From assembly GCF_041886205.1 (NCBI RefSeq), contig NZ_CP169029.1: a stretch of 64,000 bases of DNA; one strand, 5' to 3'. The notes beneath the pieces are model-generated. The model worked only from the letters and a program-made list of their open reading frames with translations, was not told the origin of the DNA and searched no databases. How positions within the stretch are numbered: the first letter of the stretch is position 1; each line of letters opens with the position of its first letter. A program made the position numbers and the translations under genes. Below, piece by piece: positions 15,561 to 64,000 of the stretch. This stretch comes from Escherichia coli. Lineage in GTDB: Bacteria > Pseudomonadota > Gammaproteobacteria > Enterobacterales > Enterobacteriaceae.

Positions 15561-15645
15561 CCTTAAAGAAGCGTACTTTGCAGTGCTCACACAGATTGTC
15601 TGATAGAAAGTGAAAAGCAAGGCGTCTTGCGAAGCAGACTGATAC

Positions 15646-15721
15646 GTCCCCTTCGTCTAGAGGCCCAGGACACCGCCCTTTCACGGCGGTAACAGGGGTT
15701 CGAATCCCCTAGGGGACGCCA
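15646..15721 (+). tRNA. gltW: tRNA-Glu (anticodon UUC) in the 16S-23S spacer
   Basis: GTCCCCTTCGTCTAGAGGCCCAGGACACCGCCCTTTCACGGCGG...GGGGACGCCA; anticodon loop CTTTCAC; 76 nt including CCA. Confidence 0.95.
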
Positions 15722-19090: not shown

Positions 19091-19130
19091 GCCGGATGCG
19101 ACGCCAGCGCGTCTTATCCAGCCTGCGCGA
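19091..19130. repeat. REP-like (repetitive extragenic palindrome) element
   Basis: gccggatgcgacgccagcgcgtcttatccagcctgcg resembles the REP consensus. Confidence 0.5.
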
Positions 19131-19382
19131 GGACATAAATGATGTAATTTCAGCAAGTTATCTCGACATCCTCTACCTGCAAGTCAAAGTGCTTATTCAC
19201 GATCAATCCCAACCACATCGATTTTCTATATAACCAGAATCCCCCAAAATCATTCTCCTGCTAACGAATTCACATTTGTGGTTGTATAATTATATGCAAC
19301 AATTACATAACATTTAATTCACCAAAAAACAAACAAAGCAATCGACAGAAAACATCAGGTTTATGGCAGGAGTAATATTCAC

Positions 19383-20681
19383 ATGACAGAAAGCACTGTA
19401 ACGACAGGCGATGAACTGACGTCCAAAGAGACCCGCCGTCGCATATGGGCAATTGTAGGGGCATCATCCGGCAATCTGGTAGAGTGGTTTGATTTCTATG
19501 TCTACTCGTTCTGCTCCCTCTACTTTGCTCACATATTTTTCCCTTCAGGTAACACTACTACGCAACTATTACAAACAGCTGGCGTTTTTGCTGCGGGCTT
19601 TCTAATGCGCCCTATAGGCGGCTGGCTATTTGGCCGCATAGCCGATAAACATGGTCGCAAAAAATCGATGCTTTTATCGGTGTGTATGATGTGTTTCGGC
19701 TCACTGATTATCGCCTGTTTGCCAGGCTACGAAACAATCGGTACCTGGGCCCCGGCATTATTGCTTCTTGCTCGTTTATTCCAGGGATTATCCGTTGGCG
19801 GAGAATATGGCACCAGCGCCACCTATATGAGTGAAGTCGCTGTCGAAGGGCGCAAAGGATTCTATGCCTCGTTCCAGTATGTCACGTTAATTGGTGGGCA
19901 ACTGCTGGCGTTACTGGTTGTGGTTGTTCTGCAACAGACGCTTGATGACACCACGTTGAGACAGTGGGGCTGGCGCATACCTTTTGTGATCGGTGCCGTG
20001 TTGGCAATTGTGGCTTTGTGGTTACGTCGCCAGTTAGATGAAACTTCGCAACATGAAACGCGAGCGTTAAAAGAAGCGGGCTCAATGAAAGGGCTATGGC
20101 GCAATCGCCGTGCATTCATGATGGTGCTAGGCTTTACTGCTGCGGGCTCGCTCTGCTTTTACACCTTCACCACCTATATGCAAAAGTATCTGGTCAACAC
20201 CGCTGGTATGCATGCCAACATGGCGAGTGGCATTATGACTGCTGCATTGTTTGTATTCATGCTTATTCAACCACTCATTGGTGCACTGTCGGATAAAATT
20301 GGCCGCCGGACATCAATGTTATGCTTCGGTTCGCTGGCTGCTATTTTTACCGTCCCGATCCTGTCGGCATTGCAGAATGTCACCTCACCTTATGCAGCCT
20401 TTGGGCTGGTGATGTGCGCATTGCTGATTGTCAGTTTTTATACCTCTATCAGTGGCATCCTTAAAGCAGAAATGTTTCCGGCACAGGTTCGCGCCCTGGG
20501 CGTCGGCCTTTCTTATGCAGTTGCTAACGCCTTATTTGGCGGCTCTGCGGAGTATGTGGCGCTGTCGCTGAAATCGGTAGGGATGGAAACAGCATTCTTC
20601 TGGTATGTGACCTTGATGGCCGTGGTGGCGTTTCTGGTTTCTTTGATGCTACATCGCAAAGGGAAGGGGATGCGTCTTTAG
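19383..20681 (+). CDS. kgtP: Alpha-ketoglutarate:H+ symporter (MFS)
   Basis: 432-aa polytopic membrane ORF; position just after rrnG. Confidence 0.92.
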
Positions 20682-30688: not shown

Positions 30689-30746
30689 AAATAATGTCGG
30701 GATTAAACCCGGCATTTAACTTGTCGACAAAGTGCGCTTTATTCAT

Positions 30747-30844
30747 GCCGGATGCGGCGTGAACGCCTTATCCGGCCTACAAGATCGTGCAAATTCAATA
30801 TATTGCATGAGCCACGTAGGCCTGATAAGCGTAGCGCATCAGGC
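30747..30844. repeat. BIME: two inverted REP elements
   Basis: gccggatgcggcgtgaacgccttatccggcctac (30747..30780) and inverted copy gtaggcctgataagcgtagcgcatcaggc (30816..30844). Confidence 0.65.
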
Positions 30845-30896
30845 AGTTTTGCGTTTGCCAGCACTTTTAATACCAGGCTTAAACCCGGCATTGAGA

Positions 30897-56344: not shown

Positions 56345-57668
56345 ACCTGCGCATTTATTATTGGTCGATGACGATCCGGGATTGCTGAAACTGCTTGGCC
56401 TGCGCCTGACCAGCGAAGGCTACAGTGTGGTCACGGCGGAAAGTGGCGCTGAAGGATTACGGGTACTGAATCGCGAAAAAGTAGATTTAGTTATCAGCGA
56501 CCTGCGGATGGATGAAATGGACGGTATGCAGCTATTTGCTGAAATCCAGAAAGTGCAGCCGGGAATGCCAGTAATTATTCTTACTGCGCATGGTTCTATC
56601 CCCGATGCCGTTGCTGCAACACAGCAGGGCGTTTTTAGTTTCCTCACCAAGCCTGTCGATAAAGATGCGCTATATCAGGCAATTGACGATGCGCTGGAGC
56701 AATCCGCGCCAGCCACCGATGAACGCTGGCGCGAGGCAATTGTCACCCGCAGCCCGCTGATGCTGCGTTTGCTGGAACAGGCGCGGCTGGTGGCGCAATC
56801 AGACGTCAGCGTTTTGATTAACGGCCAGAGCGGCACCGGGAAAGAGATTTTCGCCCAGGCTATCCACAACGCCAGCCCGCGCAATAGCAAACCATTTATT
56901 GCTATTAACTGTGGTGCATTGCCTGAGCAATTGCTGGAGTCGGAGCTGTTTGGTCATGCGCGTGGCGCGTTTACTGGCGCTGTCAGCAATCGCGAAGGTT
57001 TATTCCAGGCGGCGGAAGGCGGAACGCTATTTCTCGATGAGATTGGCGATATGCCTGCGCCGTTGCAGGTCAAACTGCTGCGCGTGTTGCAGGAGCGTAA
57101 AGTGCGCCCGCTGGGCAGTAACCGCGATATGGATATCAATGTGCGGATTATTTCTGCCACTCACCGTGATCTGCCAAAAGCGATGGCGCGCGGGGAATTC
57201 CGCGAAGATCTCTATTACCGTCTCAACGTTGTCAGCCTGAAAATTCCGGCACTGGCGGAGCGCACAGAAGACATTCCGCTACTGGCAAATCACCTGTTGC
57301 GCCAGGCGGCAGAGCGACATAAACCGTTTGTCCGCGCGTTCTCTACCGATGCGATGAAACGCCTGATGACCGCGAGCTGGCCGGGTAATGTGCGCCAGTT
57401 GGTCAACGTGATTGAACAGTGCGTGGCGCTGACCTCATCTCCGGTGATTAGTGATGCGCTGGTGGAGCAGGCGCTGGAGGGTGAAAATACGGCGCTGCCA
57501 ACCTTTGTTGAGGCACGTAATCAGTTTGAACTCAACTATCTGCGTAAGCTGCTGCAAATCACCAAAGGCAACGTCACCCACGCGGCGAGAATGGCGGGGC
57601 GCAACCGGACAGAATTTTATAAACTGCTTTCCCGACACGAGCTGGATGCAAACGATTTCAAGGAATGA
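56334..57668 (+). CDS. glrR: Sigma-54-dependent response regulator GlrR (QseF/YfhA)
   Basis: 444-aa product [18 protein letters not shown]...; receiver domain, AAA+ sigma-54 interaction domain (GESGTGKE, GAFTGA) and C-terminal HTH; 11-nt overlap with preceding gene. Confidence 0.92.
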
Positions 57669-57692
57669 ATTGGCGTTATGTGTTACGTTTAG

Positions 57693-58067
<375 letters not shown>

Positions 58068-58078
58068 ACCGCGTCAAG

Positions 58079-58104
58079 GGTTGCCGGATGTTTCCATCCG
58101 GCAA
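58079..58104. terminator. Hairpin terminator between convergent glnB and hmp
   Basis: gttgccggatg tttc catccggcaac perfect inverted repeat. Confidence 0.6.
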
Positions 58105-58111
58105 CATCAAA

Positions 58112-59302
58112 TCACAGCACCTTATGCGGGCCAAAGCATTCGTAATGAATGTTTTCCTGCTTCACGCCCAGATCCACTAACTGTTTCGCGGCAAACTGCA
58201 TGAAGCCAACCGGGCCGCAGAGATAGAACTGCATTGTCGGATCGCTGAACGCACCTTCCAGTTTGCTCAAATCCATCAGACCTTCGCTATCAAACTGACC
58301 TTTAGCGCGATCGGCTTCGCTCGGCTGACGATACCAGGTGTGCGCGGTAAAGCGCGGCAGTGACTGCCCCAGTTCCTTAACTTCATCGGCAAAGGCGTGA
58401 ACATCGCCATTTTCTGCCGCATGGAACCAGTTCACTTGTGCTGTGTGGCCTGCTTTTGCCAGCGTGTCGAGCATTGCCAGCATTGGCGTTTGACCAACAC
58501 CGGCAGAGATTAACGTCACTGGTGTGTCATCTGCGACAGCCATAAAGAAATCACCTGCCGGAGCGGCCAGTTTCACGACATCGCCAACATTGGCGTGATT
58601 GTGCAACCAGTTGGATACCTGCCCACCCTCTTCGCGTTTCACCGCAATACGATAGCCTTTGCCATCCGGTTTGCGAGTCAAAGAGTACTGACGAATTTCC
58701 TGATGCGGGAAACCTTCCGGCTTCAGCCAGACGCCGAGATATTGCCCCGGACGGTATTCTGCCACTGCACCACCGTCGACCGGCTCCAGTTCGAAGCTGG
58801 TGATAAGCGCGCTGCGCGGTGTTTTAGCCACAATGCGGAAATCGCGAGTACCTTCCCAACCACCGGCTTTGCTGGCGTTTTCGTTATAGATTTCCGCCTC
58901 GCGATTGATAAATACATTAGCCAGTACACCATAGGCTTTACCCCACGCGTCCAGCACTTCCTGCCCCGGGCTGAACATTTCGTCCAGCGTTGCCAACAGG
59001 TGTTCACCGACGATGTTGTACTGTTCCGGTTTGATCTGGAAACTGGTGTGCTTCTGCGCGATTTTTTCTACCGCTGGCAGCAGCGCAGGCAGGTTTTCAA
59101 TATTACTGGCGTAGGCGGCAATAGCGTTAAACAGGGCTTCACGTTGATCGCCATTACGCTGGTTACTCATGTTAAAAATTTCTTTGAGTTCTGGGTTATG
59201 AGTAAACATACGGTCGTAGAAATGGGCGGTTAACTTTGGCCCTGTTTCTACCAGTAAAGGGATGGTGGCTTTTACTGTAGCGATGGTTTGAGCGTCAAGC
59301 AT
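58112..59302 (-). CDS. hmp: Flavohemoglobin (nitric oxide dioxygenase)
   Basis: 396-aa [20 protein letters not shown]...; globin domain plus FAD/NAD reductase domain. Confidence 0.95.
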
Positions 59303-59321
59303 ATGGTCTTCCTTTTTTTTG

Positions 59322-59352
59322 CATCTTAATTGATGTATCTCAAATGCATCTT
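59322..59352. promoter_or_regulatory. NsrR-type operator overlapping the hmp promoter
   Basis: gcatcttaattgatgtatctcaaatgcatctt, AT-rich imperfect palindrome aagatgcatttgagatacatc on the hmp strand. Confidence 0.5.
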
Positions 59353-59630
59353 ATAAAAAATAGCCCTGCAATGTAAATGGTTCTTTGGTGTTTTTCAGAA
59401 AGAATGTGATGAAGTGAAAAATTTGCATCACAAACCTGAAAAGAAATCCGTTTCCGGTTGCAAGCTCTTTATTCTCCAAAGCCTTGCGTAGCCTGAAGGT
59501 AATCGTTTGCGTAAATTCCTTTGTCAAGACCTGTTATCGCACAATGATTCGGTTATACTGTTCGCCGTTGTCCAACAGGACCGCCTATAAAGGCCAAAAA
59601 TTTTATTGTTAGCTGAGTCAGGAGATGCGG

Positions 59631-60884
59631 ATGTTAAAGCGTGAAATGAACATTGCCGATTATGATGCCGAACTGTGGCAGGCTATAGAGCAGGAAAAAG
59701 TACGTCAGGAAGAGCACATCGAACTGATCGCCTCCGAAAACTACACCAGCCCGCGCGTAATGCAGGCGCAGGGTTCTCAGCTGACCAACAAATATGCTGA
59801 AGGTTATCCGGGCAAACGCTACTACGGCGGTTGCGAGTATGTTGATATCGTTGAACAACTGGCGATCGATCGTGCGAAAGAACTGTTCGGCGCTGACTAC
59901 GCTAACGTCCAGCCGCACTCCGGCTCCCAGGCTAACTTTGCGGTCTACACCGCGCTGCTGGAACCAGGTGATACCGTTCTGGGTATGAACCTGGCGCATG
60001 GCGGTCACCTGACTCACGGTTCTCCGGTTAACTTCTCCGGTAAACTGTACAACATCGTTCCTTACGGTATCGATGCTACCGGTCATATCGACTACGCCGA
60101 TCTGGAAAAACAAGCCAAAGAACACAAGCCGAAAATGATTATCGGTGGTTTCTCTGCATATTCCGGCGTGGTGGACTGGGCGAAAATGCGTGAAATCGCT
60201 GACAGCATCGGTGCTTACCTGTTCGTTGATATGGCGCACGTTGCGGGCCTGGTTGCTGCTGGCGTCTACCCGAACCCGGTTCCTCATGCTCACGTTGTTA
60301 CTACCACCACTCACAAAACCCTGGCGGGTCCGCGCGGCGGCCTGATCCTGGCGAAAGGTGGTAGCGAAGAGCTGTACAAAAAACTGAACTCTGCCGTTTT
60401 CCCTGGTGGTCAGGGCGGTCCGTTGATGCACGTAATCGCCGGTAAAGCGGTTGCTCTGAAAGAAGCGATGGAGCCTGAGTTCAAAACTTACCAGCAGCAG
60501 GTCGCGAAAAACGCTAAAGCGATGGTAGAAGTGTTCCTCGAGCGCGGCTACAAAGTGGTTTCCGGCGGCACTGATAACCACCTGTTCCTGGTTGATCTGG
60601 TTGATAAAAACCTGACCGGTAAAGAAGCAGACGCCGCTCTGGGCCGTGCTAACATCACCGTCAACAAAAACAGCGTACCGAACGATCCGAAGAGCCCGTT
60701 TGTGACCTCCGGTATTCGCGTGGGTACTCCGGCGATTACGCGTCGCGGCTTCAAAGAAGCAGAAGCGAAAGAACTGGCTGGCTGGATGTGTGACGTGCTG
60801 GACAGCATCAATGATGAAGCCGTTATCGAGCGCATCAAAGGTAAAGTTCTCGACATCTGCGCACGTTTCCCGGTTTACGCATAA
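59631..60884 (+). CDS. glyA: Serine hydroxymethyltransferase
   Basis: 417-aa product [18 protein letters not shown]...; PLP-binding [13 protein letters not shown] motif. Confidence 0.96.
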
Positions 60885-60908
60885 GCGAAACGGTTAATCT
60901 GTTGAAAA

Positions 60909-60930
60909 AAGGCTTCCTTCGGGAAGCCTT
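60909..60930. terminator. Bidirectional hairpin terminator between convergent glyA and yphH
   Basis: aaggcttccttcgggaagcctt flanked by an A-run upstream and tttc downstream. Confidence 0.65.
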
Positions 60931-60947
60931 TCTACGTTATCGCGCCA

Positions 60948-62147
60948 TCAAATCTGTCGTAACTGCGCCTCAACATACAAATAGCCAATTCCCAGCACCT
61001 GTTGTGCGCGGCTTAATTGCCCGAAGCCAATTTGCGTCGCTTTCACGCTCGGTCCTTCGTCGCGGTCGAACGGGTTAAATCCTGTCTGGCGAATAATAGT
61101 ATTAAGCCAGTTCTCACCAAAGGCACAACTGCGACCGTACAACCAAATCTGATTAATATTGAGGATGTTGAGGAAGTTATACAGACTCAAACCAATGGCA
61201 TTGGCAGAGCGATCAACCCAGCTGGTGATCCACGGTTCTCCACTCTGCCAGGCAGCGATTAACTGCGCGGTTGTCAGTTTTTCAGGATCAAGCTGAGTAT
61301 TAACCGGTTGTGATTTTAGCCATACCCGCGCCTGTTTTTTTAATGCACTTAACGAGGCGACGGTTTCCAGGCAGCCGTAACGTCCACAGTCGCAGACGAC
61401 GCCATCCGGATTAACGATGGTGTGACCAATCTGTCCGCTACCATACAAACTGCCGCGATAAATTTGCTCGTTAATCACGAACGACGAGCCAATGCCGTAA
61501 TCAACGTTGATCACGCAGAAATCCCGTTCCTGCGAATTATTTTGCCATTTCTCCGCCAGCGCCAGCATCACGCAGTCATTATCGACCATCACCCGAATGC
61601 CCAGCTTCTCTTCCAGCAGATACTTCACCTCAACCGGCGTTGTCCACGGCGCTTGCGGCATGGTTTGCGATACGCCGGTCACCGGATCAACCTGCCCGTG
61701 GATTGCCAGCGCCAGATTGATGGTGCGGCCCGGCCACAGTTTGCGATGACGATGCCAGCATTTTTCGATTTCGGACAGCAGCGCCTGCGGCGTCGGTGCA
61801 TCAATCTGTAAATACTCAAATTCACCTTTCGGACTTAAACAAGCATTAGCAACCTGACACTCAATACTGGTGGGCGTCACGTTCAGGCACAGCGTCCAGT
61901 CACCTTCCGGCGCAATCAGCCATGTACCGCTACTATGCCCGCGCGTCTGGCTTTCATCGTCAATATTCACCACCCGTTTTTCGCTTTCCAGTTCCTGCAA
62001 AATATTACTGACTGCCGGAATCGAAATTTGCGCCAGCCGGGCCAGCGTTGATTTATTGGCGCGCTTTTGCCGGTACAGCAGTTCCAGAATCACGCATTTG
62101 TTATGGTGGCGAATCTGTTGATTATTAATGCAGGCTCTCATCTTCAC
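60948..62147 (-). CDS. yphH: ROK/NagC-family transcriptional regulator YphH
   Basis: 399-aa ORF with N-terminal HTH and ROK sugar-kinase-like fold with Cys/His zinc motif (CDCGRYGCLE). Confidence 0.85.
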   Translation of the reverse strand: MKMRACINNQQIRHHNKCVILELLYRQKRANKSTLARLAQISIPAVSNILQELESEKRVVNIDDESQTRGHSSGTWLIAPEGDWTLCLNVTPTSIECQVANACLSPKGEFEYLQIDAPTPQALLSEIEKCWHRHRKLWPGRTINLALAIHGQVDPVTGVSQTMPQAPWTTPVEVKYLLEEKLGIRVMVDNDCVMLALAEKWQNNSQERDFCVINVDYGIGSSFVINEQIYRGSLYGSGQIGHTIVNPDGVVCDCGRYGCLETVASLSALKKQARVWLKSQPVNTQLDPEKLTTAQLIAAWQSGEPWITSWVDRSANAIGLSLYNFLNILNINQIWLYGRSCAFGENWLNTIIRQTGFNPFDRDEGPSVKATQIGFGQLSRAQQVLGIGYLYVEAQLRQI

Positions 62148-62258
62148 TAAACCTTGTTTAGTTAATTGCGTGATTATTCCGCGAAAACATTGCCAGATTG
62201 TTCAATACACTGCCACAAATCTTTTAATTCAGTATGTCTTGTTAATATTGAGGGCACC

Positions 62259-63031
62259 ATGACTCCAGTAAAAGTGTGGCAAGAGCGCGTTGAGATCCCG
62301 ACCTATGAAACCGGGCCGCAGGATATACATCCCATGTTCCTGGAAAATCGCGTTTATCAGGGATCGTCCGGCGCGGTTTATCCCTACGGCGTGACCGATA
62401 CGCTGAGCGAGCAGAAAACCCTGAAATCCTGGCAGGCGGTGTGGCTGGAAAACGACTACATCAAAGTGATGATCCTGCCGGAACTGGGCGGTCGGGTGCA
62501 TCGCGCGTGGGATAAAGTGAAACAGCGCGATTTTGTTTATCACAATGAAGTCATTAAACCTGCGCTGGTGGGGCTGCTGGGGCCGTGGATTTCCGGTGGG
62601 ATTGAGTTTAACTGGCCGCAACATCATCGCCCGACCACCTTTATGCCCGTTGATTTCACCCTCGAAGCCCATGAAGACGGTGCACAGACGGTGTGGGTAG
62701 GCGAAACGGAGCCGATGCATGGTTTACAGGTGATGACAGGTTTCACCCTGCGCCCTGACCGGGCGGCGCTGGAAATCGCCAGCCGCGTCTATAACGGGAA
62801 CGCCACGCCGCGTCATTTCTTGTGGTGGGCCAACCCGGCAGTGAAAGGGGGGGAAGGGCATCAGAGCGTCTTCCCGCCGGATGTAACGGCGGTTTTTGAT
62901 CACGGCAAACGGGCCGTCTCCGCTTTCCCCATCGCTACCGGCACTTACTACAAAGTGGACTACTCCGCTGGAGTGGACATTTCTCGCTATAAAAATGTGC
63001 CTGTTCCAACCTCATATATGGCCGAAAAATC
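62259..63031 (+). pseudogene. yphG: 5' portion of yphG (DUF5107-type large protein) interrupted by the IS1 insertion
   Basis: Reading frame MTPVKVWQERVEIPTYETGP... runs into the IS1 end at 63032 and terminates just inside it. Confidence 0.8.
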
Positions 63032-63046
63032 GGTAATGACTCCAAC

Positions 63047-63550
63047 TTATTGATAGTGTTTTATGTTCAGATAATGCCCGATAACTTTGTCATGCAGCTC
63101 CACCGATTTTGAGAACGACAGTGACTTCCTGCCCAGCCTTGCCAGATGCTGCCTCAGATTCAGGTTATGCCGCTCAATGCGCTGCGTATATCGCTTGCTG
63201 ATAACGTGCAGTTCTCCCTTCAGGCGTGATTCATAAAGCGGCCAGCCATCCGTCATCCATACCACGACCTCAAAGGCCGACAGCAGGCCCAGAAGACGCT
63301 CCAGCGTCGCCATAGTGCGTTCACCGAATACGTGCGCAACAACCGTCTTCCGGAGCCTGTCATACGCGTAAAACAGCCAGCGCTGGCGCGATTTAGCCCC
63401 GACATAGCCCCACTGTTCGTCCATTTCCGCGCAGACGATGACGTCACTGCCCGGCTGTATGCGCGAGGTTACCGACTGCGGCCTGAGTTTTTTAAGTGAC
63501 GTAAAATCGTGTTGAGGCCAACGCCCATAATGCGGGCAGTTGCCCGGCAT
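63047..63550 (-). CDS. insB: IS1 InsB reading frame (expressed as the InsAB' transposase by -1 frameshift at the A6C slippery site)
   Basis: 167-aa ORF recognised as InsB; A-run slippery motif lies in the insA/insB overlap (plus-strand gagttttttaag). Confidence 0.9.
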
Positions 63551-63744
63551 CCAACGCCATTCATGGCCATATCAATGATTTTCTGGTGCGTACCGGGTTG
63601 AGAAGCGGTGTAAGTGAACTGCAGTTGCCATGTTTTACGGCAGTGAGAGCAGAGATAGCGCTGATGTCCGGCGGTGCTTTTGCCGTTACGTACCACCCCG
63701 TCAGTAGCTGAACAGGAGGGACAGCTGATAGAAACAGAAGCCAC
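63469..63744 (-). CDS. insA: IS1 protein InsA
   Basis: 91-aa [33 protein letters not shown]... recognised as InsA. Confidence 0.93.
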
Positions 63745-63799
63745 TGGAGCACCTCAAAAACACCATCATACACTAAATCAGTAAGTTGGCAGCATCACC

Positions 63800-64000
63800 G
63801 AAAAATCGCAGTACGATTTTGTCGGCGCGTGGTGTCACGATGAAGATGGCGGTTTGCTGCACGTTGCCAACCACCATATTGCGCCAGGTAAAAAACAGTG
63901 GAGTTGGGGACACAGTGAATTTGGCCAGGCGTGGGATAAGAGTCTGACCGACAATAACGGCCCGTATATCGAACTGATGACCGGTATTTTTGCCGATAAC
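63800..64000 (+). pseudogene. yphG: Continuation of yphG downstream of the IS1 insertion (runs off the window)
   Basis: With IS1 and one copy of the duplication removed, the frame continues ...MAEKSQYDFVGAWCHDEDGG... without stops. Confidence 0.75.

Follow-up and report, generated by a model that had tools for sequence, protein, structure and literature searches.

The closest described systems for the element analysed here are the IS1 copies of Escherichia coli. The published IS1 is 768 bp long, encodes the InsA repressor and, through a frameshift at an A6C motif, a 232-aa InsAB' protein, carries a weak promoter that partly overlaps IRL, and produces target duplications of either 8 or 9 bp (PMC12428005). 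Appreciable transposition in K-12 is reported for the consensus copies, IS1A and IS1E, alone (PMC12428005). The gene affected in the present case, yphG, spans 3282 bp in K-12 MG1655 (b2549) and codes for a 1093-aa protein annotated as DUF5107 domain-containing, in which Pfam also recognizes TPR repeats. No role for yphG has been established in the literature, where it serves as a Klebsiella PCR marker or is mentioned in passing, and no papers were found on yphG together with IS1.

Here we describe an IS1 copy located within yphG in a 64,000-nucleotide stretch of E. coli DNA (hereafter, the window). We put at about 0.93 the probability that yphG was hit, in a simple transposition event, by a complete and apparently functional IS1, which generated an 8-bp duplication and rendered the gene a pseudogene; no evidence contradicting simple insertion was encountered. 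In the proposed course of events, IS1 would have transposed at codon 258 of yphG in a lineage very close to E. coli wlxctx60, 6EVA and LHM10-1, duplicating an AT-rich 8-bp target sequence (GAAAAATC), with neither a second IS copy nor a rearrangement being involved. YphG would have been split, leaving a 264-aa hybrid ORF, its function would have been lost, and expression of the downstream yphFEDCB genes would have decreased, provided that they are co-transcribed with yphG. The insertion is real but ordinary and strain-specific, a textbook IS1 event. Its practical value is limited to a strain marker and an annotation note, and it raises no new biological question.

Structure and coding capacity of the IS1 element

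Reading of the sequence combined with alignment delineated a full-length, 768-bp IS1 at positions 63032-63799, on the minus strand and antisense to yphG (Table 1). The element aligns without gaps to the annotated IS1A of K-12 MG1655 (mobile_genetic_element 19796-20563), with 745 of the 768 positions being identical, and its termini, GGTAATGACTCCAACTTATTGAT and, reverse-complemented, GGTGATGCTGCCAACTTACTGAT, are the same as the annotated termini of that copy. In the orientation of the window, the element starts with GGTAATGACTCCAACTTATTGAT at about 63032 and finishes with GCAGCATCACC at 63799, whereupon the sequence of the yphG ORF resumes. The terminal inverted repeats, IRL and IRR, are imperfect, about 23 bp long (18 of 23 positions match) and bound an element of the length expected of an IS1 family member, ~768 bp. 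The claim of the preliminary description that a 768-bp IS1 is present with both inverted repeats is thus borne out by ends that coincide with those of K-12 IS1A.

Table 1. Positions of the IS1 element, its target-site duplication and the flanking genes in the window, with the basis of each assignment.
Feature	Position	Strand	Basis
yphH, divergent neighbour, intact ROK/NagC-type regulator	60948..62147	-	ORF list; Pfam ROK 1.7e-32; K-12 and wlxctx60 annotation
Truncated yphG, 264-aa hybrid ORF	62259..63053	+	Translation; one difference from K-12 in native part
Target-site duplication, left copy, 8 bp GAAAAATC	63024..63031	.	Empty-site comparison with K-12 and wlxctx60
IS1, complete, 768 bp	63032..63799	-	K-12 IS1A alignment; 767/768 to public-assembly copies
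IRR of IS1	63032-63054		Identical to K-12 IS1A end
insB frame, 167-aa ORF, C-terminal catalytic part of InsAB'	63047..63550	-	ORF list; Pfam DDE_Tnp_IS1 3.8e-75
insA, 91 aa, GTG start, repressor/DNA-binding	63469..63744	-	ORF list; Pfam Zn_ribbon_InsA, HTH_Tnp_IS1
A6C (AAAAAAC) -1 frameshift motif, insA to insB	63487..63493	-	Motif located; role from PMC12428005
Promoter-like site, CTGCCA, 16-nt spacer, TATGAT	63765..63792	-	Consensus scan, pattern match only
IRL of IS1	63777-63799		Identical to K-12 IS1A end
Target-site duplication, right copy, 8 bp GAAAAATC	63800..63807	.	Empty-site comparison with K-12 and wlxctx60
Downstream yphG fragment	63808..64000	+	Open frame to window end; gene continues past window

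The transposase genes are intact. The slippery motif, TTAAAAAACTC, occupies IS positions 305-315 (numbered from IRL) and contains the A6C core; joining insA to insB by a -1 shift at this core results in a stop-free InsAB' of 232 aa, the predicted product of frameshifting. Pfam searches of the transposase returned PF03811 (8e-21), PF12759 (1.7e-28) and PF03400 (3.8e-75), each above its gathering score, and the fusion scored 246.7 bits (cut-off, 100) against the NCBIfam equivalog model for the IS1 family transposase, NF033558. Accordingly, the protein combines an N-terminal zinc ribbon with an HTH and with a DDE domain of the IS1 type. The promoter-like site within IRL points inward, toward insA, coincides with the reported location of the weak IS1 promoter (PMC12428005), and is the sole such site revealed by the consensus scan of positions 62000-64000.

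This layout agrees with the published description of IS1 (PMC12428005). The element shares with the consensus copies IS1A and IS1E of K-12 the length of 768 bp, the terminal repeats, the insA-A6C-insB arrangement, the 232-aa InsAB' and a duplication in the 8/9-bp range, but differs from them by 23 nucleotides and eight InsAB' residues, all of the latter located in the InsB part. As far as can be judged from the sequence, everything required for transposition appears to be in place. With insA, the A6C site, an unbroken 232-aa InsAB' and its two inverted repeats all retained, the element could transpose again or be mobilized in trans.

Length of the target-site duplication

The insertion was previously described as flanked by a 9-bp direct repeat, and the 9-mer GAAAAATCG is indeed visible on both sides of the element, at 63024-63032 and 63800-63808; the true duplication, however, appears to be 8 bp long. 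The segment 63024-63808 spans 785 bp rather than 786 bp, and the left 9-mer overlaps the first G of IS1 (63032). A 768-bp IS1 accompanied by a 9-bp repeat is arithmetically impossible, as it entails counting base 63032 twice. Comparison with the empty site of K-12, which reads ATGGCCGAAAAATCGCAGTAC, and with that of wlxctx60 shows that the insertion added 776 bp, that is, 768 + 8; with the 768-bp element set aside, the window still has exactly 8 bases more than K-12. It is on account of these 776 bp that we consider the duplication to be the octamer GAAAAATC, and not 9 bp, a count that depends on assigning the terminal G (63032) to IS1. The expectation that exactly 9 bp would prove to be duplicated relative to the uninterrupted yphG was not upheld in either K-12 or wlxctx60. 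The companion expectation, that an open frame would reappear once IS1 and one copy of the repeat are deleted, was confirmed solely for the shorter repeat: with 768 + 8 bp deleted, yphG is again in frame, with 1 mismatch over 966 bp relative to wlxctx60, and deletion of 768 + 9 bp breaks the frame.

The possibility that the duplication is nevertheless 9 bp long (GAAAAATCG), next to a 767-bp IS1 devoid of the terminal G at its IRR end, is unlikely. The 776 added bases can be divided either way on sequence alone, 9 bp is the usual length of IS1 duplications, and two of the comparator copies, in E. coli H86 (CCCTACGGC) and MB53 (GGGAAGCCT), are 768-bp elements flanked by clean 9-bp repeats. Under such a division, however, the one base missing from the element would have to be the very base that the target happens to supply, which is unparsimonious, whereas assigning the G to IS1 yields the canonical 768 bp, with both ends exactly as in K-12 IS1A, and 8-bp IS1 duplications are documented (PMC12428005). 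The 8-bp duplication shown by the empty-site comparison, which remains our preferred reading, falls within the range of 8 or 9 bp characteristic of the family.

Two BLAST segments on wlxctx60 overlap by 11 bp of the subject (CCGAAAAATCG), and the repeat can be read as extending up to these 11 bp, because the first base of IS1, G, and its last two, CC, match the target by chance. The locus is hence a case in which the repeat seen beside an IS exceeds the true duplication when the IS ends match the target: the duplication is apparently 8 bp, against a visible repeat of 9 bp that can be extended to 11 bp. With 75% A+T, the target octamer is richer in A+T than the gene segment (45%), in which only ~12% of octamers are equally AT-rich.

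Interruption of yphG

The identity of the interrupted gene follows from its match to the K-12 sequence and from its position beside the divergent yphH, within the order hmp-glyA-yphH-yphG, which is collinear with K-12. Upon subtraction of the 776 inserted bases, the visible part of yphG is identical to K-12 at 965 of 966 bp, and the last 203 bases of the window are all identical to both K-12 and wlxctx60. In the latter two genomes, the same gene, with the same target sequence and the same yphH-yphG-yphF neighbourhood, is uninterrupted over 3282 bp, unlike in the window.

On the plus strand, the yphG ORF opens with the ATG at 62259 and is broken off by IS1 at about 63032; 258 of its 1093 codons, or ~24% of the length of YphG, precede the cut. 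The resulting hybrid ORF consists of YphG residues 1-258 followed by VMTPTY and a stop, this last part being derived from the IS1 end. According to the Pfam annotation of the 1093-aa protein, the cut falls within DUF5107 (residues 39-324) and upstream of every TPR repeat. The full-length 1093-aa frame is absent from the window, where the frame ends at 63053; the 3' 2.3 kb of the gene are located outside the window, which stops 201 bp past IS1, coordinate 64000 being the end of the window and not of a feature. A stop codon in the yphG frame at 63782-63784 precedes the downstream fragment, for which no evident start, that is, no in-frame ATG or GTG, is found in the first 16 codons after this stop. 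These observations agree with the earlier proposal that IS1 leaves yphG a pseudogene, the frame being split after codon 258. YphG function has probably been lost in the source strain, where an annotation of yphG as a pseudogene is warranted.

Possible effects on neighbouring genes

The divergent neighbour, yphH, was retrieved as a mechanically called ORF of 399 aa starting from GTG; the K-12 annotation of this gene is 1194 bp. Downstream of yphG in relatives lie yphF, yphE and yphD, joined in K-12 by yphC and yphB; all are in the yphG orientation, separated by short gaps, and they code for a putative sugar ABC transporter with its associated enzymes. Because IS1 insertions are classically polar, lower expression of yphFEDCB is plausible, provided that these genes are co-transcribed with yphG.

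It had also been suggested that the outward-reading ends of IS1 can alter the expression of yphH and of the downstream yphG fragment. This suggestion finds no support in the promoter scan, where the only promoter-like site between 62000 and 64000 faces inward. In a stronger form, the insertion would be mainly a regulatory event, with transcription exiting IS1 altering yphH, or the downstream yphG fragment together with yphFEDCB. IS1 ends can form hybrid promoters. Furthermore, insAB is located on the minus strand, so that read-through past IRR would be sense for yphH, and the flanking context and IS1 transcription are reported to affect each other (PMC12428005). Nevertheless, a mainly regulatory event is quite unlikely: no outward-facing promoter-like site was detected by the consensus scan of 62000-64000, in which the total of 1 site compares with 2.0 expected from shuffled sequence; the IS1 promoter is extremely weak and repressed by InsA (PMC12428005); the distance from IRR is ~770 bp to the yphH-yphG intergenic region and ~885 bp to the start of yphH; and translation of the downstream fragment would have to contend with the yphG-frame stop at 63782-63784 and the 16 ATG- and GTG-free codons that follow it. 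It is even more doubtful that the insertion is non-neutral, having been selected either for silencing yphG-yphFEDCB by polarity or for insAB read-through feeding yphH. The loss of yphG through a simple insertion thus remains the preferred reading.

A separate IS1 insertion was observed in the same neighbourhood of a related chromosome. In E. coli MB53 (NZ_CP073939.1), which is 99.6% identical to the window over 45000-63031, an independent IS1A-like element (L006:16430-17197) resides ~1 kb from the site occupied in the window. In contrast to the latter, the MB53 element is intergenic, between glyA and yphH, rather than within yphG, shows 22 differences from the window copy and is flanked by its clean 9-bp duplication. 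Two separate IS1 insertions have thus been found in one small neighbourhood of related chromosomes; were the insertion in the window non-neutral, the MB53 element could be a hint that the locus is targeted repeatedly or is under selection.

Across the interval 45000-63031, four genomes, CX12, CX08, PT62 and LP5-1, contain ~213 bp more DNA than the window, and three others, AH04, AH02 and CT01, contain ~2.2 kb more, in four aligned pieces. Because these near-identical relatives span more DNA than the window, they apparently carry other strain-specific insertions near the locus.

Occurrence and age of the insertion

The two junctions were searched for, using 171-bp queries centred on each IS1 end and a threshold of at least 80% coverage, in 5,426 complete RefSeq E. 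coli genomes. Neither yphG::IS1 junction was covered at this threshold in any of these genomes, the matches being confined to the IS1 half or the yphG half alone. The 5' region of yphG is core, with 5,423 of the 5,426 genomes covering at least 80% of window positions 45000-63031. The exact 40-mer of the left junction had no matches in the GTDB species representatives, nor in the JGI metagenome contigs. The nearest complete genome, that of E. coli wlxctx60 (NZ_AP045833.1), carries an intact annotated yphG with the same empty site, and differs from the window at positions 39000-63032 by 4 mismatches and no gaps over 24,033 bp.

The insertion is accordingly rare and clone-level. The identity of the two copies of the duplication, the intactness of the element and the empty site in relatives diverging by ~2 substitutions per 10 kb all point to a recent, clone-level event. 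Several elements of the preliminary description are in line with this picture: a simple, fairly recent transposition is indicated by the contiguous yphG flanks and the perfect target duplication; the assumption that IS1 does not occupy this site in K-12 MG1655 proved correct, yphG there being uninterrupted; and the BLASTN comparison of the junctions that it called for, having retrieved no E. coli genome with either junction among the 5,426, justifies its view of the insertion as a strain marker. Since the junctions, 63031/63032 and 63799/63800, are missing from all these complete genomes, they can be used as a clone-specific marker for PCR or read mapping. The flanks are 99.98% identical to those of ordinary commensal E. 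coli, an identity that speaks against an origin in Shigella.

A single contig, in the Logan assembly of SRR28800585, codes for the exact 264-aa hybrid protein. This contig (SRR28800585_4615, 1343 bp) corresponds exactly to window positions 61719-63061, including 30 bp of IS1. At least one public data set thus attests that the left junction is real, although SRR28800585 may derive from the same strain or from a clonal relative.

This match bears on a technical alternative, namely, that a collapsed or misplaced IS1 was erroneously joined into yphG during assembly, with the true genome harbouring an intact gene. IS1 is a multi-copy element in E. coli (median of ~10-11 matching places per genome), repeats commonly cause misassembly, and, as noted above, the junction is found in no complete RefSeq genome. 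Even so, such an artefact is extremely improbable: a misjoin would not yield a perfect 8-bp duplication with the flanks meeting at one position of yphG, and the Logan contig reproduces an identical left junction, with the reservation that the run could be from the same strain. A composite transposon or an IS1-mediated rearrangement can be rejected, both flanks being contiguous yphG and bordered by the matching duplication.

Affiliation of the IS1 variant and the search for a donor

The differences between the window copy and K-12 IS1A (97.0% identity) are unevenly distributed. All but two of the 23 are located at IS positions 52-325 in the orientation of the window (63083-63356), in the 3' half of insB, so that this 274-bp stretch is 7.7% divergent, compared to two differences in the other 494 bp. 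Such clustering suggests recombination between two IS1 variants, with the element being a mosaic of both.

Among the complete E. coli genomes, the best full-length match was 99.2% identical (H86, 6 differences), and among the PLSDB plasmids, 98.9% identical. Closer copies, matching at 767 of the 768 positions, were identified through the exact InsB sequence on small contigs of the draft assembly GCA_014331675.1 and of the Logan runs SRR25030044, SRR25030045 and SRR25030058; the exact 167-aa InsB is present on eight public contigs in total. These copies encode an InsB identical to that of the window copy, but have a C at the equivalent of position 63691 and are embedded in other flanking sequence. 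No fully identical copy, and hence no donor, was found in the complete E. coli genomes, PLSDB or the draft and metagenome contigs searched. The exact 232-aa InsAB' was likewise missing from the protein collection searched, probably because frameshifted products are seldom recorded. The T at 63691, where every compared IS1 copy, including the 767/768 matches, has a C, is a synonymous change in codon 18 of insA (GTA), and could help to trace the donor or sister copies within the source genome.

Collinearity of the window with K-12

The window as a whole is collinear with MG1655 2,745,174..2,681,780, in reverse orientation and at 98.1-98.8% identity, and IS1 is the only large block in it that is missing from K-12; no other structural difference exceeding ~150 bp was found in the window. 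The K-12 annotation lists no mobile element or prophage in the matching interval. Together with the collinearity, this corroborates the statement that IS1 is the only mobile element in the window.

Smaller differences were nonetheless apparent. The alignment with K-12 is broken at 15625-15646 (~20 bp) and 19117-19245 (~130 bp), within and beside the region of the rrnG ribosomal RNA operon (K-12 ~2,729.5 kb and ~2,725.9 kb, respectively), by short indels or divergent spacer sequence. In addition, a ~149-bp segment situated between glyA and yphH in K-12 (MG1655 2,684,095-2,684,244) is missing from the corresponding place in the window (60894-60909). This segment is 87.6% identical to window positions 30728-30856 and has the appearance of a small dispersed intergenic repeat whose presence varies between strains.
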